Assembly (NCBI GenBank): GCA_002440965.1
Contig: DJWJ01000026.1
Span: forward strand, 23,439-87,438
DNA from: Candidatus Omnitrophica bacterium UBA6233
GTDB lineage: Bacteria; Omnitrophota; Gorgyraeia; Gygaellales; Profunditerraquicolaceae
Direction of reading: 5' to 3'
Length of the DNA: 64,000 nucleotides
Every line of letters begins with the position of its first letter. Within the stretch, counting starts at the first letter, position 1. Made by a program: the position numbers and the translations under genes. Of this stretch, positions 3,993 through 61,100 are shown piece by piece. The notes beneath the pieces were generated by a model. The model ran no database searches, was not told the origin of the DNA, and saw only the letters and a list, made by a program, of their open reading frames with translations.

Positions 3993-4075
3993 AAACACCC
4001 CCTTTTTTTAAGTTAAAACTAAAAGTAAAAAGTTGAAATCCAAAACCCTTTCTCTCCTTCCCCCTCCGTAAAAAA

Positions 4076-7276: not shown

Positions 7277-7280
7277 TTTT

Positions 7281-8153: not shown

Positions 8154-8174
8154 ATTTATTACTTAAATCCGAAG

Positions 8175-8320
8175 ACCGGAGCCCAAAATTCAAAGTTCAA
8201 AGCTCAAAATTCAAAATAGATCTAAATGACAAATATCCAATGACAAAACTTTAGTTTTAGATTTTGACATTTGGTTTTGGGATTTATTTTGGATTTTGAA
8301 TTTTGTCATTTGTCATTACA
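8175..8320 (-). repeat. Leader cassette repeat, copy C (degenerate, non-genic, between the SBP and permease genes)
   Basis: On the minus strand: TGTAATGACAAATGACAAAATTCAAAATCCAAAATAAATCCCAAAACCAAATGTCAAAATCTAAAACTAAAGTTTTGTCATTGGATATTTGTCATTTAGATCTATTTTGAATTTTGAGCTTTGAACTTTGAATTTTGG. It contains a 31-codon remnant ORF MTKFKIQNKSQNQMSKSKTKVLSLDICHLDLF* that is homologous to the MTKSKIQNKS…LSFDLCH leader. Confidence 0.7.
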
Positions 8321-8322
8321 AG

Positions 8323-9631: not shown

Positions 9632-9692
9632 ATCTGTCCTCCTATAATATAGTCATTTCCGGCTATTTTCTTATCTAAAGGCGGAATATTAA

Positions 9693-9721
9693 AATTTAAC
9701 ATAAGTTACTGGAAGGGTCAA
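9693..9721 (-). promoter_or_regulatory. Candidate sigma70-type promoter (TTGACC-N17-TAAATT) upstream of the SBP/permease genes
   Basis: Read on the minus strand: TTGACC (9721..9716), 17 nt, TAAATT (9698..9693), in the 115-nt gap between the PilZ stop and the SBP start. Sequence match only. Confidence 0.25.
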
Positions 9722-9746
9722 GGCTTTTATTCAGGTTTTATTGCAA

Positions 9747-10061
9747 TTAAACGGCTCTTAAAACCCTGGACATCCCCATAAAATCCGCTCTCTCCAAGCT
9801 TACCCCGATATTATACTCGCTAGGATTGACCATCCTTGACCAGGCAACTTCTCCCCGGGTATAGAATGGCTCGCCTTTGTCCGGAACATCCAGCCATATC
9901 TCTAGCGGGGTGCGAAGCCTTAATTCCTCCTTCGCCATAAATCCTATGCCCTTAGCGCTGATGTCCCTGGTCTCTCCGGAACCCTCCACACTTGCCCTCG
10001 GATCAATGAATCTTAAGGGGAACCTAGCCTGAAACCGTTCAAAGATTCTTCGGTCATCCAT
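9747..10061 (-). CDS. PilZ-domain c-di-GMP-binding protein
   Basis: 104 aa. It has an RxxxR motif (RRIFERFQARFPLRF) and a D/NxSxxG motif (DISAKGIGF). The SD-like GAGGGGG lies ~8 nt upstream of the ATG. It begins 40 nt after the giant ORF's stop. Confidence 0.8.
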   Translation of the reverse strand: MDDRRIFERFQARFPLRFIDPRASVEGSGETRDISAKGIGFMAKEELRLRTPLEIWLDVPDKGEPFYTRGEVAWSRMVNPSEYNIGVSLERADFMGMSRVLRAV

Positions 10062-10101
10062 CTTTTACCCCCTCTCTTTTAATAAGCGCCTGCGCCATTC
10101 T

Positions 10102-13100
10102 CTACGGCTTTATTATATTCTTATTCTGTTTTTTTTCAACTTTTACCTTATTATTTTTCCCTTCGGCCAGGTTTCTCCATAACTGCTTGACTACATAATA
10201 ACTCTTCCTGGGAATGCGTTTATTCAAGCCGTTCTCCGTCTCTTCGGACACTGCCACAATCCCAAACCATTCCTCATTCATATTTTTATTGTATTTAGCT
10301 CTTATATCATGGTAGTAACTTCCGTTGGACCAGTTCGATTCGGTATTATGAGCCTTCCACCCGTCGCTGTTATTACATTCCTGGGCGGATTCATTATGCT
10401 TCCACCATTCATCTGTCCATTCAAACATTATCCCGCCTAAACAATTGCCCATGCCTTCTTTACTGCCGGCTAAATTTTCATAAATCTGACGCCACTGCAT
10501 CTCCAGGAAATACGCCTGCATATTCTGGTCTTCTTTGTTTAAATAGGCGTCATACGCGTCAGCGCCAAACTCTGCCACCAGAATCGGCTTATCAAGATCG
10601 GCCTTTACAGATTTGAATAAATTCCCGAAGGCCTTACCACGATAAATCATACAGGCGATTAAGTCAACGTCTTTTGTTACGGCCGCAGCCAAAGCTAGAT
10701 TCGTAATTTCACAATTACCTAAGGCTACCGGATGGTTAGGGTCTATTTTATGAATCTCTTTGGCCACTTCATTGACAAAAGAATAGTAAATCCTGGCGCG
10801 CATCTCGATTTGTTTCGAAGGATTCGGTTCTTTGTCGATTCCGCTGGTGCACCAAGGCCTAAATTGTCCGGAGAAAGAACGGTTATTTTCATTACCCAAA
10901 ATCCACATTAAGACTCCCGGTTCATCCTTATACCGATTAACCATTTCTAAAACTTCCCTTTTGATTTTTTCCCGGAAATCCTTAGCATTATACGCGGAGC
11001 AAGGCCCATCCCAGAGCCCCAAATCGTGGCCTAAAATAGTGCGGATACCATAAAGCTTGAAGAAATCCCTGATTACCTGCTTAACTGCCTGCGGATTCTG
11101 CCCAACCGTATAAATTCTGCCTGTATTCAAGCCCATATCTTGCATCAATTTTCCGTCGGTAATCCAAGGCTTACCCGGGTCAGACCACCAGTCATAATCA
11201 TAGTTCTGACCGATAGGTATAGGATTATAACAAACACCTTTAACAATATATGGCTTACGTTCGACTATCAACTGGTGATAGCTGTCTTTGGACTTATTGA
11301 TATAAACCTCGGGCTGAGGAACAGGAGAAATCTGCATTATAGCCATCAAAATAAGGAAAGCGAATAAAACCAAACAAAGCTTTCCTATCTTCTTAACTAT
11401 CCATTTTAATGGACAAAACAAATAACCGGAGACAAGAGCGGCTACGCAAACCAACGGTTTCAACTTCAAGGTAAGATTTCGTAATGCCAGCTTCGCATAT
11501 TCCCAAACAAGAGAATAAGGACGTTCGAATATTCTGGCCTGGGCTGCGATTGCTTCCGGGTCGCTGGAGAATTTTTCGTGGAAGGAGATTTGCGCGACTA
11601 TGAATCTTATTTCTTGAGGAGAAAATCCTAATTTGGCGAGCAGCTGTTCAGTTTCTTTTTTTCGGGCTTTATTCCAGGTTTTATTGGTAGCGATAGGATA
11701 ATCCAATATCGCGGCGTGCTCATCTTCGGTTAAATCTTGGATCAATTTTGCTAATCCTGTTCTTCCTTGCGGAGGCGCCTTAAGTTTACCTGAATAAATA
11801 AGATACCTTACTGCCGCTATCCTGAATAAAGCATTACCAAATTCATTGAACCGCAAAGAAATTCCCCGATGATCATAATAATCAAATTCGGCCTCATAAC
11901 AATCGCGGGCGGTGATAGCGTGCCCGTTCTGCCTGGATAGATTAATAGCGAATAATTTGGCTGCTCTGTATAAAGCAGGCGCTCCCCGCTTGATTCCGCC
12001 CTTATACCTTTCTATCGCCATTTTAGCCAGCCCGGGCGTAGCATATTTAGGAAGAGTCGCTTTCCCTATCGGCATAAAAGCTGCGAATTCTAATTTATCC
12101 CGGCTACCCTGGCCATTCTTATATTCCAACCCATATTCCTGGGAAATCTTTCCTGTTTTCTCCACTAAAAACGCGATCTTTTTTTCGTAAGCCATACTAT
12201 GAAAAGTATCGGCATTTTCTATAATACAATCTTTTAAGGCTTCTAAAGCTTTCTTGATTTTTTTGTCTTTTATAATAGCCAAGGAATAAAAATCTAAACA
12301 GGCCATGAAGAAAATGGCCAAGTCTGTCTTGTGCATCTTTAACCGGTTGTGCAATATTAAACTCCATACTTTCTTTTCTTTTTCCAGAAACCGTATATTT
12401 GGATTACCGTTTTCCCATAGTTTATATTCGATTAATAAACTCTGAAAAAGGGAAGATTCTCTACTATCTAATTCAATACCAAAGAATTTGGCCGTCTTGC
12501 GCAAAAACTGGCTTTTGTTTTCTCTTGTGTTCAATACCGCTTCTAATGCAAATCCGGGCGTAGGATATTTATAGACTATCCCTTTACCAAAAGGAACAAA
12601 AGCAGCTATTTCAAGTTTATCTTTTTCGCCATTGCCGTTGTTATAATTTAAATTATACCTTTGAGACAGCCTGCTTACCTCTGCTATCAACAAGGTTGCC
12701 TTTTTTTCTCTACGCAACTGTTTAAAGAAATGCCTTTTTTGGTACAGGAAAATAACTAATCCCCTGACAGCTTTATGTGTAACAACATCGCTGATGATTG
12801 TATTATCAACTAGCTTAACCCAGATTATCCATTGCGCGGCAATGCCGCCTTTGACTTTATTTAACTTATAAGAATAAAATACAGCTGATAATTCCTTAAT
12901 TTGAGCGATAATACCGGCATCCAAATGCGATTTTTCCCACGCCTTGTATTCGTTAACGGCATTGGTAAAACGCGCGCGCAGGCTTTCGGTAATTCTTTTA
13001 GATAGCTTTATACCAAAAGCATTAGCCCTCATAAGCAGAAGCGGATATTTCTTCTTTATTTGTCCTTGATCATGCATAAGCGCCTTTTCCAGTTCTCTTT

Positions 13101-16100
13101 TCACAATGCCCAGGGTGGGATATTTAGGAAAAACACCGCAGCCCATAGGCGTTAAAGCCGCAAATTCCAGCTTATCTCTTTCGCCTAACGCGCCATTATT
13201 ACCATACCCTAGACCATACTCTTCAGATAATTTATCCGCTTTTATCATTAAAACTCTTGTCCTGTATTCATAAGACATTGACTGAATATTACCTTTCTCT
13301 TTTTCCACATAATCCTTCAATGCCCACAACGCCCTTTTAGTCTGCGCGTCTTTAATCAAAGTTAAACCCTGGATATCCAACCATACCGATATGTAGGCGA
13401 CCGCATCTTTTCCTTTCTTATCTAACCTGTTACTCCTTAATAGTTCCCATAGCTTCTTTTCTTTCGCGATCAGATCTGCATCCTTTTGGGCGCTTTCCCA
13501 GTTGTTGTATTTGACCAGTATTATCTTGTACAGAAACCGGCACCCCTCGGTCAACCTGATGTTGAATGTCTTGGCTGCCCTGTAAAGCATCTGATCCCGG
13601 GCTCCGGATATCCAACTCTCTATTGCTAATCCGGGAGTATGGTATCTTGCGACTTTACCATACAACATTGGAGGCAAAGCCGCGAATTCCAGCTTATCTC
13701 TTTCTCCATTGCCGCAAGCATAATCCAAGCCGTAGCGCTTCGCTAACTCTTCGGCTTCCTTGGCCAAAAATCTTGCCTTGCCCTTGCGGCCTAATTTCAG
13801 GAAATATTCCTTGTCCAGGGATAAGGAAAAAATCAGTCTTTCAACCGCTTTCCTGGTAAGATAGCTGGAAATGGCCAGCTGGCTAAACAGCTTCATCCAT
13901 ACTATCCAGGGATAAATCGGATTTTTTGCATGAAAGAATTCCGTAAAGTTATTGCGCCGGTAGATATCCCAAATCTTTTCGGCCTGGCAGCGTAAATCCA
14001 GGGCTTCATTATCCTTATTATTATGCCTATACTCATCCACAGCTTTTTGATAGGAAGGCGGATTGGGAATGGATTTATTTAATAAGAAAAACTTGCTGGT
14101 TGTCTTGCTTGACCTGATAACAAACATGCTGCTGAAAAATCCGATAAATTTCCTGTCATCGCTTATTTTTCTCCTGACAGCTCCTAATACAGCCCTGCCG
14201 AATCTACTTTCATAGCCTCTCTTGAGCACCGATTCTTCAACATACTGTGCAACTTCACGGGAAAAATCAGCATTCGAGAATATAACCAATAATGCTGTTG
14301 TTAAACGAGATGTACACTCTTTTTTGGATTTCTCGGATAGAATATCTAGAATTACTTTAAACACATCTTCTTTTTTAGTTATGGTATTACCCACCCTATT
14401 CGCTATCGGTTTTTGATATTTTTGTTGGCCCGCTATCAACCTTAACCTCTTCAAAGATTTTTCTTCAATCTGCCTGACTCTTTCTTTTGTCAGACATAAT
14501 AAATCGCCGATTTTTTCAAGGGTCATTCTTCCGTTATCGAAAGAGAACAAGCCGTAACGCAGTATCAACACTATCCTCTCATCATCCTCTAATTTTTCCA
14601 ACATAACGCCTACGGCTTCCTTCAATATTGCCCTGCGGGTATTCTCCTGAGGAGAAGCAAACGTATTTTGTTCGATGAAACTTCCCTGGCTATCTTCGCC
14701 TTCCGAGCTGATTGGAGCATCCAATGATACAGGGTCGCGAATCTCAAGTAGCTTTTTGATTTTTTCTACAGGCAAGCTCATCCGCTGAGCCAGTTCTTCA
14801 GGAGCAGGTTCTCTTCTATATTCCTGTACGAACTTCTGGGAAATCTTCTCTAATTTATATTTTTTCTCCAACATATAAACCGGCGCCCGTATCATATGAT
14901 TCTTCTCCGAAAGTGCTCGGGTAATTGCCTGGCGTGTCCACCAAGAAGCATAAGTGGAGAACTTATTGCCTTTCTTATAATCAAATTTTTCGATAGCCGG
15001 GAACAATCCTAATCTTCCGTAGCCGAATAAATCATCGAATGTCATCCCGCAGCCAGGGTATTTTTTGATAATATCACCCACCAGCCCAAGATTACACATT
15101 ACCAGGCAGCCAGTAATGGTTTTTGTCTCTTCGGGGGCCTTTACCGCGTGAAGAGCTTTAAATAACTCAACCTCTTCTTCTCTGCTCAGGACGTAACGGA
15201 AATTTTTAAATCTAAACTGGGCCAATATTCTCCTAGCTAAGCCTAAGCCATCCTCTTTAATATTCTTAAACAGGACTTTTGCTAACCTCTCTGCAGCCCT
15301 TACGTTTTCTTTTTTATTAATTAAATGCCCGTGCTCATGCTCAAACAGTTCTATTAAAATGGCCTCTTGGTTTGCTTGGATAAGTTTGACTATTAATTCA
15401 AGGGGAATGATAATCTGGGAATTATAAAGGCAGGCGGCTATGAATCTTTCTATGCTATCATACAAAAGTAAGCCCGGAGGGCCTTTTGACCTGACATCCG
15501 AATCAGCAAGAAATAAATAAACATTCTCTTTATTGAGCCAGCGGATTAACTGGGGAGTCAAAGCCAACAACGCCTTTTTATCCTGAGGTAAATCCTTATA
15601 GCGAACAAGACGATTCTCTTTCTGTGCCTTGGAGATGACTTTCTTCGTCTGCTTCTTGGCTTTTTTATCCATAGCGCCTTCTTCATAAATTCCCAACCCG
15701 CAGGCAGAGACATCGGGATCTTCTTCTAACAACTCTTCAATTTTTGTCGTTTCCCGTCCTGAAGCAAACCAGGCAATGCCCACAGGATTAGGCAACTGCA
15801 ACAGCGTAAGCCGCTTTTCTTTAAGCGCAGAAACAACGGCCCGGGTTGAAACGGACACGATTAAGAATGCTGAAAATATTGAAAGGAATAGCATCGCAGT
15901 AAAAAGATTGTTGTAAGAAACAAAGGCACATATAAATAAAGTTATCCCGGAGAAACTGATAATGAAAGGTATTAATGCGCGGCCACGATGATCCGTTAAC
16001 CGGTTCGGGCCAGCTTCCTGAAACGCGCGGCTAAAGGCGCTTTCCGGGCCTCTATTCAACGCTATATCTTTAATTCGCCGGGCCACTCCTTCGGTAAATC

Positions 16101-19100
16101 CTTCGTCGGATAAAACTAACCGCAATGCGCTGGCTAGCCTGCCAAAAACTACGCTATTAGCCTTTTGATTCAAAATATCCACAATCTTTCTCAATACGGC
16201 CTCTCTATCGGCTAGAACATTCTCCGGAATCTCAACAATAGGTTTATTTTCTTTAATGGAGGCCTTGAATATCCTTTTTGACTTCTTGATTGCCGCCTCC
16301 TCTATCTGCCTAATTCTTTCCTCGCTTAAACACAGAAAATTCCCTATTTCTTTACGCGTCTTTGTTTCGCCAGAAGCGCTATATAATCCGTAACGCAAAA
16401 CCAATATTACCCGCTGGTTATCACTTAACTGTGAGAGTAATGTCCTTGTATTTTCTTTTAATATATACCGGTTCGCATTTACTCTGGGAGAAACGAATTT
16501 GTTTTGTTCAATTAAATCTAATAGGCTGTCTTCCCCTGCACCAAATGGAGAATCCAGGGAAATGGGGTCACAAGTTATAATGAGATTTTTAATAGTCTCT
16601 TCGGAAAAATCGGTAATTTCGGCTAACTCTTCCTGCGTAGGATCTCTGCCGAATTCCTGGGTAAATTTCTCAGAAATTAAGCGTAATTTAGATTGCTTCT
16701 TCTGCATATACATCGACACCTGCATCTTATGGGATTCCTTCCTGGACGCTCGGGTAATCGACTGGTATATCCACCAACTGGCATAAGTTATAAACCTATA
16801 ACCTTTTTTATAGTCATATGTTTTAGTAGCCCGCAATAACCCGAGATATCCTTCGCTAACGAATTCTTTTGTTCCTCTCCCACATTTTTTAGCTGTATCA
16901 ATAATAAATCCTAAATTGCACCTTAGTAGGCAATCGAGAATATCTTTTCTTTCGGAAGAACTGATCCCGTTCTCCAGGGCTTTGAACAATTCGATTTCTT
17001 CCTCTTGATTCAAGAGATACCCGCCGCCACATTTCAATTCTTCCAATATTCTTTTAGCCAGATGCCAGCCGTCCTCTTTGATAACGCTCAATAACTCTCT
17101 TGCTAATTCCTCCCCTTCGCCTGTGTCTTCCCGGCCGCCCAGAAGATGCCTCTTCTCGTGTTCAAAGAGTCTTATTAAAAGACTCTCCTGGCCTGCTTGA
17201 ATAAGTTTTGCGATTAATTCAAAGGGGATATAAATGGCGGAGTCGTAAGCGCAGGCGAGTAAAAATCTATCTTTATTTTCATACCAAAGGAATCCCGGAG
17301 GACCTTTTGACATTATCTTAGATGCAGGGAGGACTAGCTGGATATTTTCTTGGTTTAACCAATTCAATAGTTGAGGAGTAAGGACCAATTCCTGTCTTTT
17401 ATCCTGCGGCAAATCCTGATAGCGGAAGATGCGATTCTCTCTTAAGGCCTTGAAGATGATTTTTTCTGTTTCCTTTACCCCCTCCGCGTCCATCGCGCCG
17501 TCGGAAGTATAAATTCCCAACCCGCAGGCAGAATGGTCAGAAGAATTATGGATATCATGATATTGTGTTAGCTGCAAAAGGAAGTTCTTAAATTTTGGAC
17601 TGAAATTGTCAGATAATCCCAATGCCCACCTTAACACAATATCAAAAATATATTCTTCTCTGGTATTCCCTAAAATTGTTTCGGCAGGAGGATTAATCAT
17701 AAAAGTAGCGTGGTCGCAAGTAAGGATGCGGCCGTCGACACTGATGAATAAAAATATTTTATCCGGGCGGCGATGAGAGAAAATATCATCCATACTCAAT
17801 GGTTCCGCTTCCGGCAAAGACTTTGCCCCACCCTGAGCGATAAGATGATTTATATGAAACATTCTTTCGCCCCATATTATATATCTTTCATATAAGCCGT
17901 ATTTTTTAAGAATACGGAACCGGTTTTCCGCACGAGATAACCTTATATTATATGCAGCTCGCAGCCTTCCTTCGCGCCACCTATAACTTTCCTCAATGGC
18001 CTTGATAACCTTTACCATATCTTTGTCTCTTTTTTTCGCCTCTTTTTCATGCCACTGGTCAAGGGAAAAAACTAACTCAACATTATCAGGAATTTTGCCT
18101 AAAAATTTGTCCATCTCTTCATGGTCTTCTGGGAAAGATAAACCATTGGTATCTATATGAACCTCGCCGATGTGCTTGCTGGCGGACCAAAGAATTTCCC
18201 AGAAATCAGCCGAAGGCTGGTTATCCGTATAATTTTTCTTTTTGTAGGCAAAAGGCTCTCCGCCGACAAAATACACACTGGGAAATCCATCTAACTGCCG
18301 GATTATCCTTTTAATCTGATCCATAGGCAAGTCTACGTTAGGATCTTTCTCAATAACATCCTTGGCAATGCAAAATCTACATCTATATGGGCAGCGATGC
18401 GTTATCATAATATTGATATTCGAGTCTAATTTCGGAAACTCCGTCTTTAGGAGATCGAATAAAATCGCTACTCTTTGAGGGGATTTATTTATCATCTGGG
18501 CGGCCTGCTTTCCAACATCGGCTAAGACGCCGGCAGTGAGTTTTTGGATATTCCGGTCTTCGGCTTTTAATGCCTGGATAGCCGCCCGCAGAGTTCCATC
18601 CGAAAGTTTAACTACCCATGGTTTATCTGTCTGGCTTAAAGATTTAACTATCAATCTATAAGTGCGACTGATTTTTACGAAGTCCATAAGATAGGTAGAA
18701 TAAGGGGATCGCGCGCTGTCTTCGATAAACTCAGACTTAGCGATAATATAGTAGATATTTTCTTGCCGGTTTGCAGGTTGCCATCCTAATTTTGCTAAAA
18801 CTTCTATTGCGTCTTTCCAGCGATAAAGAAATCCGCTTTTTAATACTCCGAAAAGAAATTCTTCCAAAGCCCTAAGAAAAGGCTCGACTGCAGATGGGCC
18901 GATTTTAATCAAAGTTTCTATTATGCAATTACAAACACTCCAATTTTCTTGTCCGAATCCAGAGGCGGCTTTAAGCTCATTCTCAACAACAAGGTCATTT
19001 AAGGCTTTAATAAGGCAAGGAATTATGGGTGGGCCGATTTTCACTAATGTGTCCATTGTAAGATGACGGAAATTCCAATCATCATCGTTTAATGCTCCAA

Positions 19101-34100: not shown

Positions 34101-37100
34101 AAGAAGATACATTGTTGATAAAGCCGTCTTTGGCTAACAGAATTCCTCCCTCTTTAAGCGCCCTACCGAGCATCTCTATAAAATCACCGTTATAGGCATT
34201 ATCACCCAAGTGGCACAACACGTGACTAGCGGTAATTACGCTTGCCCCGAGCAAGCCGTCTCTGGCGGGATTATCCGTAATCCGCAGACGTAGCCCCCTG
34301 TTCTCAAGATGTTTTTTAACCGGGTCGAATTCAATACGCAGATTCCCGCGGTGCGCATCTTTTTTTCTTTCGATTAAATCTCTAATATTCTTTTCTCCCA
34401 AGAACGCGATGATATCTCTGTAAATATGCGTTCCGCGAACATTTTCTTTTAATACATCCTTACGATCCCGGTAAACAATTCCCGGGGCCACAGCTAATGT
34501 GCAGTAACTTACCTTACAACCGGATATCTTAGCTATAATTTCGGTAATTTCGTATTTCCTGTTCACGGATAGCATCAATTCTTCAATATTGCTCCCCCAA
34601 TTGCCATACGGGGACGAATGCTTCACGATATCTGTTCGAATTTCTTCGGGGAAACCGGAAAATGGAATGGTGATGAAAGCACGCGGGATGGCTGCAGGAA
34701 GCTCTGTCCCGACAACATCTATATTGCGATTCAGCGCTTTTAATCTGTCTGCCATTTCAACTGTCGTTATCGGCAAAGCCCCCACTCCGATATCTACAAT
34801 CAAATGCTTTCCGTTATATAAATCAACCCCATAAACATACCTGCACCAAGGAGAAATAATGAATTCTGTTACCTGATTATTGCGATTCTCACTAGTCAAC
34901 TTATTGAAAACTCTTGGCAAGGATTTATCCACAGCGTTCCAGCTTATTCTCCTTAAACTGCCTAATAATGATTCGATCCTTCTTTCTTCCCCTTTTACAA
35001 AAACCTGCATCCCCTTGACCTGACAAGGCATTTCCCATTTATGGCGAATAATTTCCTGCAATTCACCCTCGATACGCCTCGCATCATGGTTTCCTATAGC
35101 AGTAATGAGGGCTTCACCCTTGGTAGTTATATAATCCCTGTTTTTCATGTCCTTGGCATCTAGAGATGATAAATACTTCCGTCCTTTCTCCGGAAAGAAT
35201 AATTTCGTCCCTTTATCAATCCATCCGCGCAAGAAACGGATAAACTGCTTATCCCTGGGAGAAAAACTTATACCGCAGACTGCCAGGCTTAAACCGGCTG
35301 TATCAACCGGCAACGAAACGATGGAGGACTTTGACAACGCGCCCAGGACAATCCCGAAAAAGAGCGAGAAGGAATAGCAAAAAACTATTGTTATACCGTT
35401 CCATAAACCGGCAGTTATGCCGTCATCAAAATAGAGTATATATTTTATTGAGGAAGCGGCTACGCATACTGCCAGGATGACCGGCAGATACGGCTTATAG
35501 AAAGCCAGGATAGAAAACGGCATGCCCCCGGTTGCCAATGCGTAAATAAAGAATAATCCTCCAAAAATAACACCGACGCCTTTAGGCGAACGTATCAATA
35601 CGGACCAAATCAACCCGAAGCTCAAAAGAATAAACCCGGTAACAAGCCCTGCAGGACTAGGGGTAACCATACGCGGGATGACCGCAAAACTAAGGAAGAT
35701 ACCGAGAACCACGCTCATAAGATTAGCAAACATATGGATACCCATTATCTTGATGGTGGAACCCATATGGCCGGGAATAATCGACCGATGATATTCGCCG
35801 TAAATCAGCGTCGTCCAGGAAAATAAAGCTGCGATTACAAGGAAAACCGGATAAGACAGGACGGCGGTCTTTATTGTTTGAACAACCCCTCCCAGGTCTG
35901 CGGCGAAGGCAAAAGCCGGCGAGAATGATAAGAGTAAAATTGCGCCGCCTATAACAAGAAAAGCTTTGAACTGATGGATTAAGGAAGACTCCTTGCGCAG
36001 GAGAAGGGAGGTAACCGCAGGTTCTTTATTACTTCTTAGTCTTTGGATACGCTGGTTAAGACTATCCGCAACATAGAGATTACCTTGGGGATCAAAAGCT
36101 AGGCCTTCGGGATTGTTAAACTTTCCAAGGGCTGTTCTTGACATACAATCTCTTCTTCCGGCGAAGAGCTCCCATTGTTGAGTTTGGATGTTAAAGCGCT
36201 GGATACGGTGGTCAAAAGAATCTGCAACGTAGAGGCTGCCTTGGGTATCAAAAGCTAGGCCTTCAGGGCAGTTAAACTCCCAAGGGGCCTTACCTGCTGC
36301 GCAATCTTTGCTTCCAACAAAGCACTCCCACTCCTTGCTCAAGGCAGGCAGGGATTCGGCTGGCTGCTGCATCTTAGTTTCCATCTCCTGCCAGTTTAGC
36401 TCTTGTCCTTTGAAACTCTCGTAATGCTCTTGGATAAAGTTAGTTATTTCTTCAATGGCAGGACGGGTGGCGATGTCGGATAGGCTATGCTTATCAAGAA
36501 GTTTTAGCCAGGCTCCAACAGAGATTTGCTTATTCAGCTTGCCGGATAATGTCTTCAGGGCTTGTTTCTCTTTAGGGTTAAGCCCGTAGTAAGCTTTAGC
36601 CATCTCCAGGATAGTTAATAGCTCGGTGGTAAGATTATCTGCCTCAAGAGGCAGGCTGAAGTGGGCTGCTTCTTCGACAAGGCCAAGGTAGAGCAGATAG
36701 ATCAAATCCTCTTCTGAAGCATATTTATCTAGCGCCTGGTCTATGCCGATAGTGGGCCTGTTGCCTACCTTTACTATCTCTACCATCGAGGCTGCCTGCG
36801 CTGAATCAATCCTGTAATACTTAAGGCCGGTAAGATTGGCCTCCAGGAGCGAGTGGTAACGAGGGAACCTGCTTTTTAACAAGGCCAGAGCTTTGTTGAC
36901 CGCGTTATACATACCCTCATCAAGCCTGGCTAATTTAATCCACTGCCTAGAAGGCAAAGAGCCCTCCTTGCGCAGGAGAAGGGAGGTAACCTGCGGAAGA
37001 TTCCCCGCGAATTGCTGTAATATGCCCTCCCCTACCGTAACCGCCAGCAGGCCGGCGACAAAAAGCTTCTCATCCGGAGAAATTTTCTCTTCATGCGATA

Positions 37101-43100: not shown

Positions 43101-46100
43101 TTGCCTCTTCCTGCGTAAAATTCTCTTCCCTTACCCGCAATATCTCATCGCTATCGAAAATGCTCAGCGAAGAGTCTTTGGTTTTCAAGGCGGTTACGGC
43201 GGCAACGATTTTTTCGTCGGCATAGGCGGCCCGGATTTCTTCGCTAACGCGCTGCGCCCCGGCTAAAGACCTGCGGTAAAGCTCGTCATTACCCTGCGCC
43301 AATGCTTTAATAATATCATTTCTTGCGCCGTAATAATCAATGACTGCCTGCGGCAAGGTATCCTGTTTAAACGCCCCCGCCACAAGATTGTCGGCCGAAC
43401 GCTCCAATTCATCATTCACTATCCGGTATTCAAGCTCTTTAGCCTTATCCTGCGTTTCGCCGCTTAACTTGGTAAGCTCGTAGAAAAGAAGTGTGTAAAA
43501 TTTGACGGGATTTTCTTCATTACTAAGAACGGTAAAAAATTCGCTGTCAATATATACCCAGTTTTTGTTATCGTATCTGCCCCAATGCGCCAGCGCGTAT
43601 GCGTCGGGGGCGCGGATAAACAAGCCGGGTAAAGCCTGTCTTTCTTCGATGACAACGACGTTTGTTTTCTTAAATAGCTCGGCTAACTGCTCTAAATGAT
43701 GCTCCCGGCCGAACGCATCGATACCTGCAAAGAGCTGCTGATATTTTCTCCGCTGATCCTTAATCCGGCCCTTTTCCTCCTGCCCCCATACTAGATACAC
43801 TTTCCCCTCATCGATCTTCTTCCTTATATTCGCGTCAATTTCTTCATCAGTAATATTCCCGCGCCCGTAAGCAGGCGAGGTAGCGCTAGCCTGATTATTC
43901 TCACGTAGGAATTTTACAAATTCCGGCGCTCGACGCTCGATTTCGCGGACCAGTTCAATCACCATCTCCTCCGGATTTTCGTCTTTATAATTAACCGCCA
44001 GGACAAAATCCCGAAGTTTCATAATACGGAAGCTGCCATCCATACCGACCACGGCTGATTCATACCAATTATCCCCCACTACTTTACCCAACCATATCGC
44101 ATACAAAGGATAATTTTTCTGCAGAATGTCGAGAAGGCGGCTATCCGGTTTAATTTTTTTAGTCACACGCACTATGCCGGCAGGAACGATTTTATACACT
44201 AAATCGTTACCTTTGATAGACGCGGCAAAAATTCTATCGGATGTTTCCGCAATCTTCCGGGCCAACCGCGTATCGACGCAGCGCCGTATAAATGTCTGCA
44301 AAGGGCACAGGGCCGAAACACCTAAAGTTTCGATGTAAGACCAATTTTCTTTAGCAATATAACAATGAACCTCATCTTCAAAATTTATATCTTTTCCCGT
44401 ACGCTTGTTATGAACCAATGTGCCCAGCAGTAATTTAGAAGCGGCTTTACGTAAATTTCGATTCTTATCGTATAAGGCGTTTTTAAGAACGGATAAACCT
44501 GCTTCGCTGCTAATTGAACTTGAAGCATTCAAAAGATCCAGGTTTGCGATTGCGACTTTGCGGCCTTCTTCTTGCGGGCCGCTTAAATACCTTATACAAA
44601 TTTCAATTGTTTGCTTTCTCCTGGCCCCTAATTTATCCAAAGAATTGAGCGCACAGCTAAGATAAGGCGCATCTTTTAAAAACTTGAATAAAAGCTCCCA
44701 GTCGCCATCTTCTAAAGCTCCGATTATCCTATTGCACGCAGAATATTCCTTTCGGTTCTTTAGGATTTTCAATAAACGCGCTAATACCCTTGGATTCATA
44801 GAAGAAAAATGACTATAATCCTGGATTTTTTCTTTTCCTATAAATTCCTTCGAGGCGCGAAAAGCCAAAAGTATCGGCAACAGAAAATACCAAGCTAAGA
44901 AGCTAATCAACAATAAGCTGGCTACTATAGAAAATACTATTAACAAAAGAGGAAGCTGGAGTTTAATAAAGTTACCTGCCGACATTAAGAAAAACCAAGA
45001 TATCTTGCCAATGAAACCAAGAAGAAAGAACAAACCAATAACGTAAAAGAGAAACGCAAAGAATGTTTCCCAGAGTGGGGAACGACCATCGTTGGCGAAA
45101 CCTATTATAAAAGAAGCTATAGATATGCTTAAAACCACCTTGATTCCAAAAATTACAGCTGTAGCCACAGCGATTGAGCCTTCTCCAGCCAGAGCCAAGG
45201 CGGGAATGGCAAAAAGGAAAATACTGGCAAACAAGGCGCTAAGAATAACTACACCCAAAGCGCTGCCTCTCTTCATATTTAGACTACTATTTATTAACGA
45301 TCCCATCCCGACAGCAGGAACATTTTTTGCAGGGATACTATTCTTTCCGTTTATTTCGAGTGCTTGCCTATTATTAAAAAGCGTCTTTTCACTTAGTTTC
45401 TGTATCAATTTTTCCACTAAATTATCACGCCAAATGTCTATCGAATGTCCGAAGGTTAGATGAAAATCTTCTTTAGGATAAAAATAGCCGATAATGGTTG
45501 TACCGAATTTCTTTTTGTTGGAGGTAGAATATCTAATTACAGGCATTCGCATATCGCCGAATATATCAGTATTACCAGGAACGATAACTGCCGTTTCTCC
45601 CGGATGTTCGATTATAGAAAGGCTTGCGAAATCACAAACAGCCGCTGATAAGCCTTGACCGTATTTTCCACCAATGCCAAACGTCTTATTCCACTGTATT
45701 GCTTCAGAGATAGACACAACCCTGTTTTTCATATCTCTAAACCCATCCCCATTATCTGCCACTAATACTCTAGATTGCCCAATAACAACTATAGCCAAAC
45801 CTTCAGGGACATGTTGCATGACATTCTCTAAAGCAATTCCTAAAAACTCCGCTTTACCGCTATGTTCTTCTAACTCAAACATTCTTGCGGCGTTATGACA
45901 AAGAGAGCGCCAATTCTCCCTTTTCTTCTGCATCTTATAATCAATGTATTTTCTTTCCGTAACGATGGCTGAAGGAGAGGCAAAGATCGCGGCATTTGTT
46001 ACTATGCCTCCAAATTCTTCAAAATTCTTTATAGAATCAATAGCCGATTTACGTAAATCATCTATGCCTCTTGATTCTTTTGTAGACTTACGATCCAGAA

Positions 46101-49100
46101 CCATCGTTATTGAAACAGTAGCAGAATATGGACGATACTCCTTCTTCAGTTTTATCCCGAATTGTTTGGCTGCGTGGAGAAACTTAGTCAATTCTGCGGG
46201 GTTATTCCGGAAATAGGCGTAATCTAAGGCAAGGGCTTTTGGTTCTTTAAGGCCCTTGATAAGATGAGATCCTACATCATGGAAGATGATAACGTTGATA
46301 AGGGCCTGGAAGGACTGTAATTCGGGGTTATCTGTGTCAAAAGGAGGCGCCCTTGCTGCCAGGCCTGAGTCGAATTCTACCTTGTTGTTGATCTTTTCCG
46401 CAAGGGAGAGGTTGAATCTATTGCTTAACACAATAACTTCTTCTGGCTTTAGGGTAATCCCAAGAACCCTGAAGCTCTCCTTAATGTAATTCAAGAGATT
46501 ATTGATCTGGCTTTCTGTTATAGCCTTACGCTCTTTTTGACTAAGAGGAAGAGATGCGGGGAAATTATCCAGGCTTGAAAGCAGAAAGCTAGCTACGACA
46601 AGAACAATAACAGGAAGAAATGTATATTTAAAAACTACTTCCAACTTGTCAGGATTAAGGTTTAGTATCATTATCATGGGAATAACAAGAATACCAATAA
46701 TGGGCCCTAAAAATAATAAAACAGCAAAACCGGTATTTTCTCTGGAGAAAACTCCATCCCATTGTTTTAATATAGAAAAATATATGTAAGAACCCGCAAA
46801 ATATAGTATCAACACCATAAGACAAATAGCTATCTCATGCATTTGTATAAATCGCAATGCCGCAACAATACTAGGAGCAAAGAATAGGCTAGTGGTTAAA
46901 ATCAGGGAAACCACTAGGCAGGCATCAATAACACTATTCGTCACCTCATCGCTTTGCTCTATCGTCCTACGCGCTGCCTCTAAGAACCCGGCATCGCGGC
47001 TCCTTTTTAACAATACAACCGTAGCCTTAAAAATGGCTAATATAGAAAACGCGGACATAATACCTATACTGATAAAAAATGCATTCGTCAGAGTAATGGA
47101 GAAATTGGCTGCTCCTGAAGTAATCATTTGTCCTGCGGCCAAGGCGGGAATGGCAAAAAGGTAAATACTGGCAAACAAGACGCTAAGAATAACTACACCC
47201 AAAGCGCTGCCTCTCTGCGAGGAGAAATCAATTTTCTTATTGTTGTATCTGGAAAATAGAAGGTTATAGAGAATTTCAGCCTGTTTATTTCTGGAGAGCT
47301 TGAAGAAGTAGGTATTAAGATAAACGGTCCAGCCTTCTCCTTCAATCCAGTTGTAGCGGCCGACCTTATTAGCGGTAAATGCGGGGATAGAGGTAATTAT
47401 TATCTTTCCCGGAATAGGCGGAGAACGCAGGCCAAACTGTTTGAACCTATCCGATAGCTGCTTTAAGGTTGTGAAGAAAAGACTGTTCTTTGCTTCATAG
47501 CTTTCTGTGGAGAGCTCAAAACCGGTCAGGCTTAAGGTAACGTGGCGCCATTTCAGTTTATCTTCCCGGCTAAGCTGCTGCTGGAATTCTTTAGGCACAT
47601 CCGGCAGGCAAGAATCCAAAGCATTATCCTGCCCTGTGTAATCCTCCCTGGTAGATGGCACATCTAGAACATCCCGAAGGACATTTAATGTTCTTTTGGA
47701 GGGGATAGCGGCAAAAGAAAAAAGCAGGGACGGCAACCAATAGGTAGGATCCATCGGAAACGAACTCTTAGCTATACATACTTTATTCTCATTGTTTTTA
47801 TTTACCCGCCGCGAAATAGCAATTAGCTCTTTTAAGAGCATCGACTCTTCCCGGACATACCCTCTAAGTTTTTCCAGCAGTTCTTTTGCCGGAATCGCAA
47901 TTATTATTTCTCGAGCAGTAAGTTTCGTAGCTGTCTCTTCGCTGCGGAGGCCTCCTAAATGCCGGAATTCTTCCCTGAGGCCATAGATAAGAAGCGACCT
48001 TTGAGTCTCATCGTCAAGTGCTTTATCAAATAAAGCGGAGCTTATGGCTATGACTTCGAAATTTTTGAAGCTATGAGTTTCAATGAAATATGTGGTAAGG
48101 TCAAAGAGAGCGATGTAGACGGGTTTGCCAGAAAAAACAAAGTTATCTACATACTCATCCTCTACATCCAATGCCTTCTTTAGCAAACTGCCCATAAGAC
48201 CGCTGCTAAATACCGGGTCTAGAATAAATTGCCTGGAGACATTTGTGGCGGTATCGGCGATATTTAATCTGATCCAATTGCCTGCTTGTTGTGCTGCTTG
48301 CGGAATCTCATAAGCAGCCTTACTGTCTTGGGTGGAAGGTTGGCCTTGAGGCGCTTTATAAGGAGAGCTGGCGGACAACTCAAGCTGAAGGGCGTTGGCT
48401 GACGCAAGATTTTGCCGGGAGGCAAAAAACTTAAGAGTATTCGACCGGAAATATACCTCTATCTCCTTAATTAGGCCTGCTCTTATCTGTTCGGCATAAG
48501 GCGCGGGTATCGTATCCGAATATATTCTGACCGGATTTCCCTCTTTATCATCGAAACTTATTTTCCAGGGAGACACTCCTTCTTCTCCGAAGGTGCCCTT
48601 CCCGGACGAATTATGGTAGATGACATTGGTTTTGCTTAAAAATTTGAAACTGTACCGGCCGTGTTTATCGAATAACCAACCGGCTAACGACGGAGCAAAC
48701 TTTAGGTTCAATTCATTCCGCTCATTCAGGAAGAATGGCCTTTTGCCCAGATTCATTATCAACCATATCTGTAAAAATTCTACGGTTGAGCCGGAAAGGC
48801 GAGCCACAAAACCGTTCCCCTGCAAGCTCTCGTCGGGATAGGCGCTGCTTGCCAGAAACGAGGAATTTTCCAAAATGCTGCGGCCGTATCTTTCAGGGCT
48901 CTGGAATGGAATGAGCGCGGATTTAAAATCCTCATAGAACTGCTCCGCAAGCCCGCTTTTTAAAGTTTCCAAAAGATACTTGTATTCCATATGCAGCCAG
49001 ATAGATTCGTTTTCTAACCATCCCGAGGGGAATGTCCGGCATCTGCCGATTTCTTCAGGCATCCCTTCAAGGGAATCGCACACTTTATACATCTTAAGCT

Positions 49101-55100: not shown

Positions 55101-58100
55101 AATCAAACAATACCATAACATCATCCCTATCATCCATCCATTTGACATTGCCTGTTTTCATATCCCCATGGATAACAGCTTGAGGCAGTTTTTTATATTT
55201 TTCTAAAGATAAATTATTTTTCAAAGAAGCAAACTGACTAAAAATAAAATCGGCATTATCCAAGAAGAGTTGTTCTGACCTTGAAAAATTTCCGCCTTTC
55301 AATATTAACCGTTGTTTTAAATTTAAGAAATCTTCTTCGGCAGTAGCAATATCAATTGCTAATAATTCCCGTTTCTCTCCCTTAGGTATAAAACCGGACA
55401 GAACATTATGGATTGAAGCCATCATTTTACCTAATGAGAAAAACTGTTCCGGACGCATTTGTGCCCAGGTTATTTCTCTTCCATCCGGAGTATACTCTTC
55501 TAAGAACCAATACCAGTCCTTTATTTTTAGCAAATAGCCTACATGCCTTGTTTGCTGTATTCGAGCAACAGGAAGACCTTGTGCATGCAAATATAATTGC
55601 ACTGAAACAATAAAATCGGCTTTTAAAGAATCGTTCGTTGCGTACTTTAAAACAAATTTTCCTTTCGGCGAATAAATTAGCAAAGGCTTTCTTAAAGAAG
55701 TGCCGCCGATTAAATCCTCATATTGAACTTGATTCAGTGAATTTACCCCTAAATCGTAATTCTGTATGATTGCATTGGCTTTTTCCTGCCCGGTTACGAC
55801 TACTTTTCTCAAATAATCTTTAATCCTCATTGAAGATAATCGCCAAAGAGGAGTATTATCAGCATCTGTTTGCGAAGACGAAGGAAAACTATATTCCTGG
55901 ACAAGCTGCGCTGCTTTAATGGCTGCGCCTCTGGCGGCATTGGCATCTTTAACCAAAGTCACTTCTATTATCTCTTGTATGTTTAAATCTTTGCTGTATT
56001 GGTTGACATACTTCTGCAACAATCTCTGACGTATCTTGCCTGTCCCGGCTGCGGTTGTTCCGCCGCCAAAGGCAAATTTTGTCTTACCAGTTAACTTATA
56101 GAGGAATATCACATGCTGGGCTTCGCGCTGCTCGACAATATCCCATACTTCTAAGGATAACTTCACTAGCTCGCTGTCGCTATCCAGTTTCAAGGAGGTA
56201 TCCAGAGGATTTATGCCGCTTGCGGCTAAGCCGATATGCTCTACTTCTATTTTACTTATCCCAAGTTGTTTTAATTTTTCAGTTAACCCTATCTGATTGG
56301 CTACTGCCATGATCCCGCGGATGCTGCCTGCCCAATCCTCATAAGAGCCTAGCGGTGAATTCTCTGCCCTTGATTCTATACCATCTTTTACGTTGAATAT
56401 CTGATGGCCGCCTTCATTGGCCCCAGCCACTACTTCACCGTTTTCTATCTGCTGCACGCCTATTCCTGAGCCGGTAATTAATATAACCGCATCTTTAAAG
56501 CCTGCCAGCTGGGCTATACTTAAGCCCCATCCGGTCATGTCATTGCCGTAACCAAGCAAGGCATCCCCTAAAATATTGCGCAGATCCTCAATAAATGTGT
56601 TTGCCTCGGACAGGCCTGTTCCCATATCTTTTCCAAAGCCCCGGCTTAATTCGCCCAGGCTTGCCATACGGTCATGGGCGTAATCCGGATTTCCCGGAAG
56701 ATTAATAAAGAGCGCGCTAACCTTTCCATACTTGGCTTCTACCGCTGTTTTTAGTTCCTGGACAAAATTTACCAGCCGATTGCTGAATTCCTTACCGCTA
56801 TCGCCAACTTCTAGTTTTTCATATTTAAAGGCGTAACGGTAGCGCAGCGATTTATCCTGTTTCCTGAGTTCTTTCTCATTTGCTGCCTCAGGCGACAATT
56901 CATCAGTTACATCCTTACCGTCTACCAATACGCATGATTTTATGCCCTGTCCGCCTACATCAAGGCCTATGGTAACCATTGTCTTAGGCAGGGTTATTTT
57001 TCTGTTTTTATAACACTGCTCTATTAATTCTTTTAACCCGATTGGGCTTTTTGCCTTAAAATCTTCCGGCTTATATATTATCTCTACTCTATTTCCGGCA
57101 TTGGCTTTGCTTAATAATGGCGCGCCTGTTTCCTTAAAGTATTTATCTAATGATTTGATTGCTGCTTCTTCGATGTCGCCTCTGCAGATTGATGAATCGT
57201 TTTCGTAGGCCTCCACATAGATATGCTCTGTCGGGCCATTACCTAAAGCCAACCCTTGGGCGTATAATTTGGCGATGTAGCTGCGGTATATTGTTTCTGC
57301 CTGGCCCTTATTTAGCTTGGCTGGATCAGGAATTCTAATTTCTACTGCCCGGCCGTTATCCGCGGTTAATCTCACGGTTATTACTTTGGCAGACTGCTTA
57401 ACCACAGACTGGATATTCTTTTCGATGTTGATATATTCTGTGGAAGTCCCATTTATTTTTGGAAGCGCTTTCCTGGAAGGTAAAATAAAAGATTTTTGAG
57501 CTGCTGCAGAGCTTTTCCTATTGTCAAATGTGTCTGCATCGTCGGTTTTTTGTTTTTCAACATTCAGTACAGATACTTTCTGCAAAAGTTCTTTGGCGGC
57601 AGAGCGGATCTCAGGAGTGGCGCCGGGATTACTTAAAACGGCATCCATCTTATCGGTAACGAACCTTATTTCATTACCCATCACCAAAGGAACAGCATAG
57701 ATAATCAAGAGGGCTTGCTCTTCAAATGTTAAAGGCGATGAATAGTCTAAGAGGTTTAAAGATCTGGCGGACGCCTGATCACGGCTTTCAAAACCGGCCA
57801 TTAGTTCTATAGCCTGAAACTTTCTTTCCAAAACACCGAATGTCCCTAAAAGGCCTTTAACGGTATCTTTATCCTTAAATGCAATCAGGGCGTCTAAGGC
57901 TCCGCGGAAATCCTCGGGGGAATCCAGCCGGCAATATAGTTCATAAACCACTTTTTCGCGAAGCCAGCTTGCCAGAGACCCCTGCGAATGCTTGAGCCAC
58001 TTTAACCACTTAGGCCAGATAGATTCTGGCGTAGAACAGATGGTTTCATTAATCACCTTAGTAGCTATCTTGTCTTCCAGCCAGCGCGATGCATCGTTCC

Positions 58101-61100
58101 AACACAAAAATACCAGTGTCAGAGGAATTGCGGCACTTAAAAATAACCCAAACGGGGTCATATGAGAAGAACTATGGGGTATATATGAGGTTGCGGCCAA
58201 GGCGGGGGCGGCGAAGAAAACAGCGCCGGCAATCGCCATTAAGGCTAAAAGCAAAACCTGGGTGGAGCCTTTCTGATTATCAAAACCTATATCATCGCTT
58301 TTTTGTTTTTCAACATTCAGGACAGATACTTTCTGTAAAAGTTCTTTGGCGGCGGAGCGGATCTTAAGGGTAGCGTAGGGATTCCTTAAGACAGCATCCA
58401 TCTCATCGGCAACAAATTTTCTGTTATTCCCCATCACCAGGGGCACAGTTTCAAGGATAAGAAGCGCCTGCTCTTCAAAGGTCAAAGGCGCTATGTCATC
58501 CAAAAGCCCGAGGAATTGACCGGGGAGCCGGTCGTGGCTTCTAAAACTACCCATCACACTAACCGCTTGAAGTTTCTTTTCCAGCATACCGAAGGGGCCT
58601 AAAAGGCCCTTGACGGTATCTTTGTCTTTCAATATAACGATGGCGTTTAACGCTCCGCGGAAATCCCTGAAAGAATTCAGCCGGCAATATAACTCATAAA
58701 CCACTTTTTCGCGAATCCAGTTTGCCAGAGGGCCCTGTGAATGCTTGAGCCATTTCAACCGCTTAGGCCAGATAGATTCTGGCGCGGAATACCCGACAAT
58801 CACCTTAGCGGTTATCTTATCTTTCAGCCAGCGCGATACATCGCTCCAGCATAAAGAAACCACTATCAGAGGAATAATAACTCTTAAAAATAACCCAAAC
58901 GGCGTAATATGAGAAGAGGTGTAGGGTATGGATGAGGTTGCGGCAAAGGCGGAGGTGGTAAGGAAAATAAATCCTAAGAAAATACCTAGCACCTTGAGTT
59001 TATTCTGCAACTCAGAAATATTTTTTCTGGCTCTCTGCTGGGCTTCTGCATTTGCCTCCATTCTAACCTCTCTGAGATGGCGAGCCTTATCAAGGGTAAT
59101 TTCTGCATTGCATTGGACCTCCAAGCGCTTTCCATAGCTCTCTCCTGTCAAGCCTATCTCGAGCTGTTGGTTGGAATTACGCATTTCTATCTCTAAAACA
59201 GTCTTCGTATAATCTGCGATTATCTTATATGCCTCTGCTCCTAAATTGCATAATTCCTCTTTTGCGCGCTCCAGCTTGAATTCCAATGCCTGTTTCTTGA
59301 GTTGCTCTATATGCTCCGGTTTAGCGCTGGGGTCATCGGCATAGCTTTCATGCAAAGCTACATGCTCTTTGGCAAAACTAATAAGCAATTCTTCTTCATC
59401 GAGCAGGTTAAAGAGCCTGGCTATTCTTTCTCTTTCAGAGGGATTTTGCCAATCCCGGCTGTTGGTTAGAGGTAATTTACGAATCTCTTCTGAGGAGATA
59501 TCGTATTGCTCTCTAAGGAAAATAAGCTCGTCTCTATTTACTTTTTCACCGGCACGGCGGGCTTTCCTTTTGCCGCTAACAATAAGGTAGTTGAGTAAAA
59601 CTGCGGAATAGAGCGTTTCGTCTACCATCTCTGCCATATAGGCTAAATCAGGATTTTTCTCTTGGCATTCCAAATAAATATCATGCATAAACCCGGGTGT
59701 GATGTTGTGGAAATCACCTTCATCAAATTTATTGAACGTCTGTTTTAAAGAATTGAAGGAAGCGCAGGAAACTTCCAGCTTGCGCTTATCTCCGGGTGTA
59801 AGTTTTATATCCAGCTTTTTAAATAATTTTAATATAGTGCTCGTCTTAGTTTCTGTGCTGCTGGAAAGGCCAGACACAACCTCTTTGGCAATAAACATGA
59901 TATCTTTTTGCGCCTGGAGAACGATTATCTCTTTATTACGAAGATTAGGATATTTCCGGAGTAAGCTTGCGTAAGCAAGGATGATTTGCAGCGCTCTTTC
60001 AATCCTTTCCTTGCCAAATTTATATCCGGGTGCGCTAAGGATAGTCTTTACTTTTTTTGTATCTAAGTTACCCTTGGCATCACTTATCTTAGCAGCATAA
60101 TGGATTTTTTTAGTTGCTTTGTTGTAATAGACTATCCTTTCCCCGCAATAGTCTTCCAGCGCTTTAACTACTTGAGCCGGCCCTTTGAATAGCCTGAACC
60201 CTTTACAGCTAAAACTAAACAGTTCCTCGGAAAGCGGTTTCTTGAAGAGCAAAAATAAAATTCCCACGACAGTTAAAGTTATTATTCCAAAGAGGGATTG
60301 CACTGGGATAGAGTTTATTGGCCCTGCGGCAAATGCGGAGGTGGCGAAGAAAAAGATAGCTGCTAATAAGGTACCGGCAATCGCCATTAAGGCTATAAAC
60401 AAAACCTGAGCGGAGCCTTTTTGATTATCCGGCCGGGGAGCAGGGATGTGGCGAAATAAGGAAAATTTACCGGCCTTCTCTGGCATAAAGGCCAAGAATT
60501 CTCTTTCTACTCCCAGGCGTGAACGTACGATACCCTTGAAGCCTGCTGCTTCCCGGGCCAAGCGGATAAATAAATCAATTCCATCTACCTCGTCTACGCC
60601 TTTGCCGAAGTTCTCGCCCACGCTTGAGCCTAAAACAATTAAATTAGTAAAACCTTCCTTAGGATAGGCTTCTTTGAAGGCTCGCATAGCCATACCTAAA
60701 TCTCTGCCGGCTTCGCTGATAAAATCCAATGCCAGCCTATCTCCATTTTGGGCCTTTTCTTCAAGATGAGCATCCTCCAAAGGTAAAATTTCGCCGGCCC
60801 CGGAGAATTCTTGCCATCTCTTGGCTAACCCCGGCCCCGAGAGATAATCCTCCAGGCTCCTTTCGTCCGGAGTCAATTCTCCCGGATCTTTCTGGCCCAA
60901 CCAACTGCCATCCGGCTTGGGTTGATATCTCCATTCTTTTGTCTTTAGATTATAGATAAGATGATGCCCTAACTCGCCCAAGCCCCAGCTTACTTTATCG
61001 GACTTATAACAAGGCTTGCCGTCCTTTAGAATACCTGCTCCTACGCCTGTGCCTAAAATAAGGAATGTGCCGCTAACCAGAATTTGTTTATTTGGATTAT

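Follow-up and report, generated by a model that had tools for sequence, protein, structure and literature searches.

The stretch of DNA analysed here, 64,000 nucleotides (nt) of contig DJWJ01000026.1 (positions 23,439 to 87,438, forward strand) from Candidatus Omnitrophica bacterium UBA6233 (GenBank assembly GCA_002440965.1), is referred to below as the window. It carries a giant gene in which two identical copies of a 28-bp sequence, the 28-mer, bracket a 975-bp cassette. The open reading frame (ORF) of the giant gene occupies 10102-64000 on the minus strand and runs off the window, as supported by the ORF list, the gene call of the Joint Genome Institute (JGI), Pfam and hydropathy. Between 10102 and 63921 it comprises 17,939 codons without a stop, and no in-frame stop is present from 63921 to the end of the window. 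The JGI call gives a protein of 18,423 amino acids (aa), in which the ATG at 63921 corresponds to residue 485. Residue numbers below are counted from this ATG, the first in the window, nucleotide positions are given on the plus strand, and the features of the giant gene are all encoded on the minus strand.

More than 15 Pfam families were detected above cut-offs in the giant ORF, including ROK, APH, HMGL-like, VWA, AAA_5, NHL, GGDEF, ABC_tran with OB_MalK, Patatin, HEAT, radical SAM and Sigma70 r2/r3/r4. A hydropathy scan indicated 46 hydrophobic segments, and, as far as the gene lies in the window, Pfam detected no peptidase domain. The ORF contains two complete sigma-70 r2/r3/r4 sets according to Pfam and three paralogous sigma-70 segments according to self-BLAST, along with a MalK-like ABC ATPase with an OB domain, an HMGL-like/homocitrate-synthase unit, and a MoxR-type AAA_5 domain with VWA, and this domain content is striking for one polypeptide. 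The adjacent solute-binding protein is identical to NCBI proteins labelled MAG [Candidatus Omnitrophota bacterium], and a contig of the metagenome-assembled genome (MAG) GCA_041649345.1 is 100% identical to window 2822-13980. With an ORF of more than 10,000 residues, a phylum assigned by protein and contig identity, and its hydrophobic helices and Pfam diversity, the giant gene falls into a known class, that of the giant, membrane-threaded multi-enzyme proteins of Omnitrophota. Archaeovorin-type giant proteins of this phylum (West-Roberts et al., 2023, bioRxiv 10.1101/2023.11.21.568195) and class 1 'multi-enzyme metabolic clusters' (Nielsen & Lui, 2026, bioRxiv 10.64898/2026.06.07.730766) have been described in terms of architecture and topology. 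In these two accounts nucleotide tandems are mostly dissolved, and the mechanism of domain gain and loss is left open.

The 28-mer CTCCTTGCGCAGGAGAAGGGAGGTAACC is present in exactly two copies, at 35989-36016 and 36964-36991, and no further match was found on either strand of the window when up to three mismatches were allowed. Only one exact repeat in the window is longer, and none of 100 shuffled sequences contained two matches to the 28-mer. Both copies lie in the giant ORF in the same frame, 975 nt or 325 codons apart, and each is read on the coding strand as a G followed by GTT ACC TCC CTT CTC CTG CGC AAG GAG, that is, nine whole codons and one matching base upstream. The encoded peptide, VTSLLLRKE, stands at aa 8978-8986 and aa 9303-9311. 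Exact search and translation thus agree with the initial annotation on the positions, spacing and shared peptide of the pair. The copy at 36964-36991 is 5' in the gene and is called upstream below, the copy at 35989-36016 is called downstream, and the cassette lies 26.9 kb from the 3' end of the gene.

Motifs of the VTSLLLRKE type occur only at these two places in the ~18,000 residues of the giant protein. Given that VTSLLLRKE is encoded twice, the probability of identical codons under the codon usage of the giant gene is 6.4e-6, and the rare leucine codon CTC (7%) is among the nine repeated codons, which makes the 28-mer a copy at the DNA level and not merely a conserved peptide. Identity is 28/28 inside the repeat and at background directly beyond both of its edges, and self-BLASTP detected no paralogy around either copy. 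Neither chance nor peptide conservation accounts for the pair. The 28-mer had no exact match in the genome, metagenome and viral contig collections, which lack the source contig and are therefore silent on the rest of the genome.

The cassette had been described in the initial annotation as an NHL-repeat cassette, and the two NHL repeats are indeed flanked by the 28-mers. They fall within 36037-36276 (Pfam NHL, E = 1.3e-14, two stretches), one at 36193-36276 (aa 9216-9243) and the other at 36037-36120 (aa 9268-9295). However, about two thirds of the cassette is a helical domain of ~200 residues without a Pfam family (36361-36963, aa 8987-9187), recognised by profile matches, with the core LLYLGLVEEAAHF...ELLTILEMAKAYY. 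An AlphaFold2 model of the helical domain, built with a six-sequence alignment, had a predicted local distance difference test (pLDDT) score of 73 and a predicted template modelling (pTM) score of 0.76 and was all helical after residue 27, with the lead-in motif, the segment containing VTSLLLR, non-helical and of low confidence ahead of the fold. A single-sequence model of aa 8800-9334 reached a pLDDT of only 34. A Foldseek search of PDB with the helical-domain model gave no match (best E = 0.46).

Directly after the downstream 28-mer, the giant protein continues with SSLIHQFKAFLVIGGAILLLSFSPAFAFA and then ADLGG, a signal-peptide-like sequence according to the hydropathy scan and sequence reading. 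It forms the first helix (35902-35988) of the next membrane block, a cluster of seven helices reaching 35338. The downstream 28-mer thus stands between the last NHL blade and this membrane block. Tandem Repeats Finder detected an NHL tandem with a period of 156 nt, 1.8 copies and 74% matches at 36044-36330, and both 28-mers lie outside it. It had been considered that the 28-mer might be part of a longer tandem duplication of NHL units. Taken literally this does not hold in the window, where the NHL units exclude the 28-mer and its identity does not extend into homologous flanks, though in a relative the whole module is in tandem and begins at the corresponding motif, as described below.

An exhaustive HMMER search of representatives with aa 8800-9195 as the query gave four matches, P0121 to P0124 (best E = 1.1e-21), of which P0121 derives from an Omnitrophota MAG. 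Their alignment yielded the family core LLLYLLLVEETxHL...ELATFLNMAKAYY. A leave-one-out profile, from which the window's own sequence was omitted, matched aa 9007-9184 (E = 8.8e-33) with an envelope from aa 8977, and the family profile detected no second helical domain after the downstream 28-mer. A conserved lead-in, [VI]-x-S-L-L-G-R, is present in P0121, in P0122 (twice in L004, the contig of P0122) and in P0123, and the window has V-T-S-L-L-L-R. The lead-in is 27-30 residues from the first conserved helix in P0121, P0122 and P0123, the upstream 28-mer aligns at this position, and the motif precedes the helical domain in all five other occurrences. The upstream copy is thus followed by the family core, and the downstream copy has the motif without the core. 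In BLASTP, the alignment to P0121 passes through the motif and ~45 residues further upstream. The upstream junction is seemingly conserved in P0121 at ~30% identity, and on this comparison it looks old.

In L004 the module occurs twice in tandem, with a period of 1,590 nt and ~80% DNA identity. GTCAACTCCCT (V-N-S) is the exact point from which the two units are homologous in DNA, the 60 nt ahead of it being unrelated. The 28-mer of the window has its left edge at the same valine as the L004 unit. In L005, a single alignment to the window protein (E = 2.5e-27) takes in the helical domain and, after it, the NHL blade WEHFAGKENCNEGSRLGQFDGPGGLAFDKEGNLYVAD. Since the helical domain and an NHL blade recur together in this relative, the bracketed segment is a real conserved module, as had been assumed. 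When aa 8851-9450 were used to search for homologues, the result was dominated by generic NHL propeller proteins covering 13-26% of the query, and the same search without the NHL part gave no match. A profile-based homologue search returned P0122 and P0123 only. No loci related to aa 8801-9189 were found in the metagenome and genome contig collections, from which the source contig is absent, and the family alignment had no relatives in the viral contig collection. The reading frame of L005 is disrupted at ~690-720, inside the conserved helical core, and at 1148-1153 of L004 a TGA is directly followed by an ATG between the two module units. The modules may be separate or decaying genes in some lineages, or these stops may be sequencing errors.

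Two further islands of near-identity with abrupt edges were found at leaders in the giant gene. The first, of 79 nt and 97% identity, lies at 45194-45272 with its partner at 47138-47216. Its product is an entire signal-peptide-like leader, (Q/K)RGSALGVVILS(V/A)LFASI(Y/F)LFAIPALA, with unrelated bodies behind it, and it resembles the 28-mer in type. The second, of 56 nt and 91% identity, lies at 58226-58281 with its partner at 60374-60429 and encodes the first half of a signal-peptide-like leader, DNQKGS(A/T)QVL..ALMAIAG, likewise ahead of unrelated bodies. It is common to the leader at aa 1165 and to the second unit of a tandem duplication at aa 1881, the rest of that unit matching the first unit. 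This duplication, at 57,538-58,967, has a period of ~750 nt (747-753) and ~80% DNA identity (aa 1624-1886 versus aa 1869-2138), and each of its units opens with a signal-peptide-like helix.

Further tandem module duplications in the giant gene involve the sigma-70 modules and 174-residue repeats. In addition, the last ~420 residues of the giant protein (10105-11400, minus strand) are a full-length paralogue (62% identity, E = 0) of a free-standing glycoside-hydrolase-like gene at 1574-2896 on the minus strand, three genes downstream of the giant ORF. The paralogy includes the signal-peptide region, which is an internal hydrophobic helix in the giant protein. From this alignment, the giant ORF seems to have taken up a whole gene by in-frame fusion, or the transfer may have gone the other way. 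Because the terminal ~420 residues match a complete gene including its signal peptide, modules seem to act as whole units with their own leaders.

Relatives of the giant gene differ from the window by in-frame modules. In L014, L015 and L017, which are 98-99.5% identical to the window, the 4,369 nt at 11,635-16,003 are replaced by ~292 nt of a diverged repeat unit (~7,708-8,000 of L014), a net shortfall of 4,077 nt or 1,359 codons, in frame. The replaced segment covers a transmembrane pair, the third sigma-70 module and the 174-residue repeats, and the breakpoints share a match of only 9 nt. The complete orthologue on the contig of L014 (ENA ERZ27247100 k141_413108) has 27,940 aa, compared with 18,423 aa here. 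Another relative, L016 (GCA_028717055.1, ~90% identity), has ~1.8 kb extra (L016 2044-3812) at window 15,840-15,846, and its positions 3941-4799 match window 17,533-16,684 at 82%. The extra segment is apparently an additional sigma-70-like unit, to judge from this match. In-frame gain and loss of modules is thus demonstrated for the giant gene, at sites other than the 28-mer cassette. A strain variant, L002, is 99.86% identical overall, with 24 substitutions across an 18.2-kb alignment, 19 of them in the giant gene. Nine of these 19 fall within 17,137-17,236 (L002 2,466-2,565), in a sigma-70 module, which suggests an imported or converted tract. At the eight sites compared with the paralogous sigma-70 module, the paralogue is matched by the L002 alleles at 4/8 and by the window alleles at 3/8.

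We propose that the 28-mer pair is the scar of an intragenic duplication of the module followed by its contraction, both by ordinary recombination, a tentative reading to which we assign a probability of roughly 0.45. The lineage-specific module would consist of the lead-in V-x-S-L-L-(G/L)-R, the helical domain of ~200 residues and the NHL blades, and the upstream 28-mer would be its native start. A tandem duplication of the module may have made the downstream 28-mer the start of a second unit. An in-frame deletion or fusion may then have removed the body of the second unit, thereby bringing a nine-codon stub, an orphan module start, directly in front of the signal-peptide-like leader that opens the next membrane block. 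The by-product would be a direct repeat of 28 bp, in frame, through which the 325-codon module could in principle be lost or duplicated again. As the initial annotation pointed out, recombination of one copy with the other would remove 325 codons and leave the frame intact, which follows from the 975-nt spacing. In Escherichia coli, about 20-30 bp of identity is required for RecA-dependent exchange, and deletion between shorter repeats proceeds without RecA. Most probably, the 28-mer is itself a passive scar. The order of events, in which truncation follows duplication, is inferred, as is any activity of the repeat in recombination.

The assignment of the downstream copy as a unit start is based on the left edge of the 28-mer, which coincides with the valine at the unit boundary of L004 and would be unlikely for a random patch. 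The tandem modules elsewhere in the giant gene, the in-frame indels in relatives and the two leader-only islands also support duplication followed by contraction, as do the recurrence of the helical domain with an NHL blade in L005, the terminal paralogue of a free-standing gene with its own leader, and the single-copy structure of matching length in an independent k = 31 assembly. Several points weigh against it. Two events are needed, a duplication and a deletion that stayed in frame, and no trace of a second module body follows the downstream 28-mer. No more than four relatives, all short and metagenomic, represent the family, and the alignment to P0121 is weak in its upstream part, at ~20% identity. 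Furthermore, the change from 28/28 identity to background at both edges is equally expected from a short copied patch.

Such a patch is the basis of a rather unlikely but serious alternative, in which 27 nt from the module start were placed once at the NHL-membrane junction, 947 nt downstream, by templated repair, template switching or a short gene-conversion tract, and a second module never existed. This short ectopic copy requires one event where duplication and contraction require two, and it fits the abrupt edges on both sides and the length of exactly nine codons. The 56-nt, 91% identical mosaic patch likewise indicates that short patches move between leaders of the giant gene. However, the left edge of the patch would have to coincide by chance, to the base, with the N-terminal boundary of the module, which is also the homology boundary in L004, and gene conversion needs flanking homology, of which there is none at the 28-mers.

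The V-x-SLLxR lead-in and the signal-peptide-like leaders at 45194/47138 and 58226/60374 may instead be in-frame recombination handles, sequences at module starts through which modules are shuffled, deleted and duplicated without breaking the frame. Their identity would then be kept by repeated exchange and would not be a one-off scar. We consider this unlikely. If true, it would provide a concrete mechanism for building and remodelling proteins of 18,000 to 150,000 residues and would account for the large length differences between near-identical strains.

It is doubtful, to a greater degree, that V-x-SLL-x-R is a functional delimiter, a short linear motif (a processing or docking site) or a recombination handle kept at both ends of the module for release or swapping. 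The motif is conserved in the family, yet the lead-in around it is non-helical and modelled at low confidence, which is typical of short linear motifs, and islands of identity restricted to leaders are found at three places in the giant gene. Cleavage of giant Omnitrophota proteins into smaller polypeptides, which would suit a processing site, has been suggested, though not shown (bioRxiv 10.1101/2023.11.21.568195). Nevertheless, a motif present only twice in ~18,000 residues is no general delimiter, its five other occurrences all precede the helical domain, and a peptide function cannot explain identical codons. Nor was a peptidase domain detected in the windowed part of the gene. RNA folding was not significant (z-scores of -1.15, 0.02 and -0.70), and Rfam gave no matches at gathering thresholds across the whole window.

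A recent insertion of 975 bp, with the 28-mers as a target-site duplication or a Campbell-type crossover site, is very improbable. The geometry of direct repeats around a discrete module would fit, and integration of a circular unit of repeat and module (R-M) at a pre-existing R site is formally possible. However, Pfam gave NHL-type matches only and no transposase or recombinase domain in the cassette, the only independent ORF of at least 50 aa in it is one of 50 aa out of frame, no terminal inverted repeats were found near its boundaries, and GC content shows no step there. The repeat derives from the module's own conserved N-terminal motif, [VI]-x-S-L-L-G-R, and not from a target, and the seemingly conserved junction in P0121 argues against a recent event. 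At 28 bp, the repeat also far exceeds the length of known target-site duplications. The initial annotation had viewed the repeats as a footprint of modules being added or removed and, equally, as a possible mark of insertion. The first part is borne out for the giant gene by the in-frame indels in relatives, whereas the repeats as a neutral boundary or insertion mark are contradicted by the upstream copy being the lead-in of the module itself.

The assembly was compared with two further sources. One is JGI metagenome 3300001592, assembled from 454 and Illumina data on produced water of the Medicine Hat oil field (PMC5029510). Its contig Draft_10000140 (122,492 bp) matches the window at 100% identity across the 19.7 kb compared. 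The Logan contig SRR5323216_27 (k = 31; 36,978 bp), reported for seven samples, is 100% identical over the 11.3 kb compared, from window 8289. If collinear with the window, it would end at 45,266, which is the last base reachable for a k = 31 graph entering the 36-nt exact repeat at 45237-45272. The length of this contig thus fits the window across the cassette, indicating neither a 975-bp deletion nor an extra copy. Because 28 is smaller than k - 1 = 30, the 28-mer makes no loop or break at k = 31, and identical tandem copies of the module (M), with an M-R-M junction, would have broken the contig. A chimeric join or a collapsed tandem array is hardly credible, even though the source is an older hybrid metagenome assembly and the other assemblies of the giant gene compared by sequence all end before the cassette, since the Logan contig has exactly the length predicted from 8289 to the repeat-imposed break. 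The X-R-M-R-D structure is therefore taken as real and single-copy.

The locus shares with the published Omnitrophota giants a single ORF of more than 18,000 residues, many hydrophobic helices, many unrelated Pfam domains and internal domain repeats. It differs from the published accounts in its short exact leader repeats and strain-level in-frame module indels, which are mentioned in neither paper. As in large repetitive bacterial surface proteins, whose repeat units are duplicated and deleted by homologous or slipped-strand recombination, and as in deletion between short direct repeats at large, direct in-frame repeats surround a unit whose gain or loss is frame-neutral, a tandem state of the module is found in a relative (L004), and units differ in frame between relatives. 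Unlike in those systems, only nine codons of a second unit are left here, the two copies precede unrelated sequences, and the one other assembly that spans the site shows no length variant. Developmentally excised elements interrupting nifD or sigK are bounded by short direct repeats. The cassette resembles such mobile or excision elements in being a discrete segment between short exact direct repeats, but it is without a recombinase, a transposase or inverted ends, it codes in frame with its host gene, and its repeat is the conserved sequence of the module itself. Within a known class of gene, the feature is thus a further example of a known process, the duplication and deletion of modules inside a gene with a short direct repeat as the remnant.

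The literature leaves open how domains enter and leave the giant genes of Omnitrophota, and the locus adds three small, concrete observations on this point. Neighbouring modules that are otherwise unrelated share, at three places, nothing but a leader of nearly identical DNA. One module plainly looks like an entire gene that was fused in together with its signal peptide. Between relatives with 98-99.5% identity, modules of kilobase size have been gained or lost in frame, and the overall difference is nearly 10,000 residues. The 28-mer, in turn, marks a site at which in-frame loss of a module could be directly testable in long-read population data.

Two other roles for the 28-mer were considered and rejected. 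The repeat ends in AAGGAG on the coding strand, and in the upstream copy six bases further lead to an in-frame TTG, which had raised the idea of an internal ribosome-binding site. AAGGAG is about as frequent as expected, with 26 occurrences in the ORF against ~20, and real gene starts here have a weak Shine-Dalgarno sequence or none. An RNA hairpin formed by CUCCU...AGGAG was rejected on account of the non-significant fold.

Outside the giant gene, a 41-nt AT-rich intergenic element, GGGATTTATTTTG.ATTTTG.ATTTTGTCATTTGTCATTAC, occurs twice, at 6391-6431 and 8279-8319, with 95% identity between the copies. The ends of three independent Logan contigs coincide at window 8289, within this element, suggesting that more copies of it are present elsewhere in the genome.

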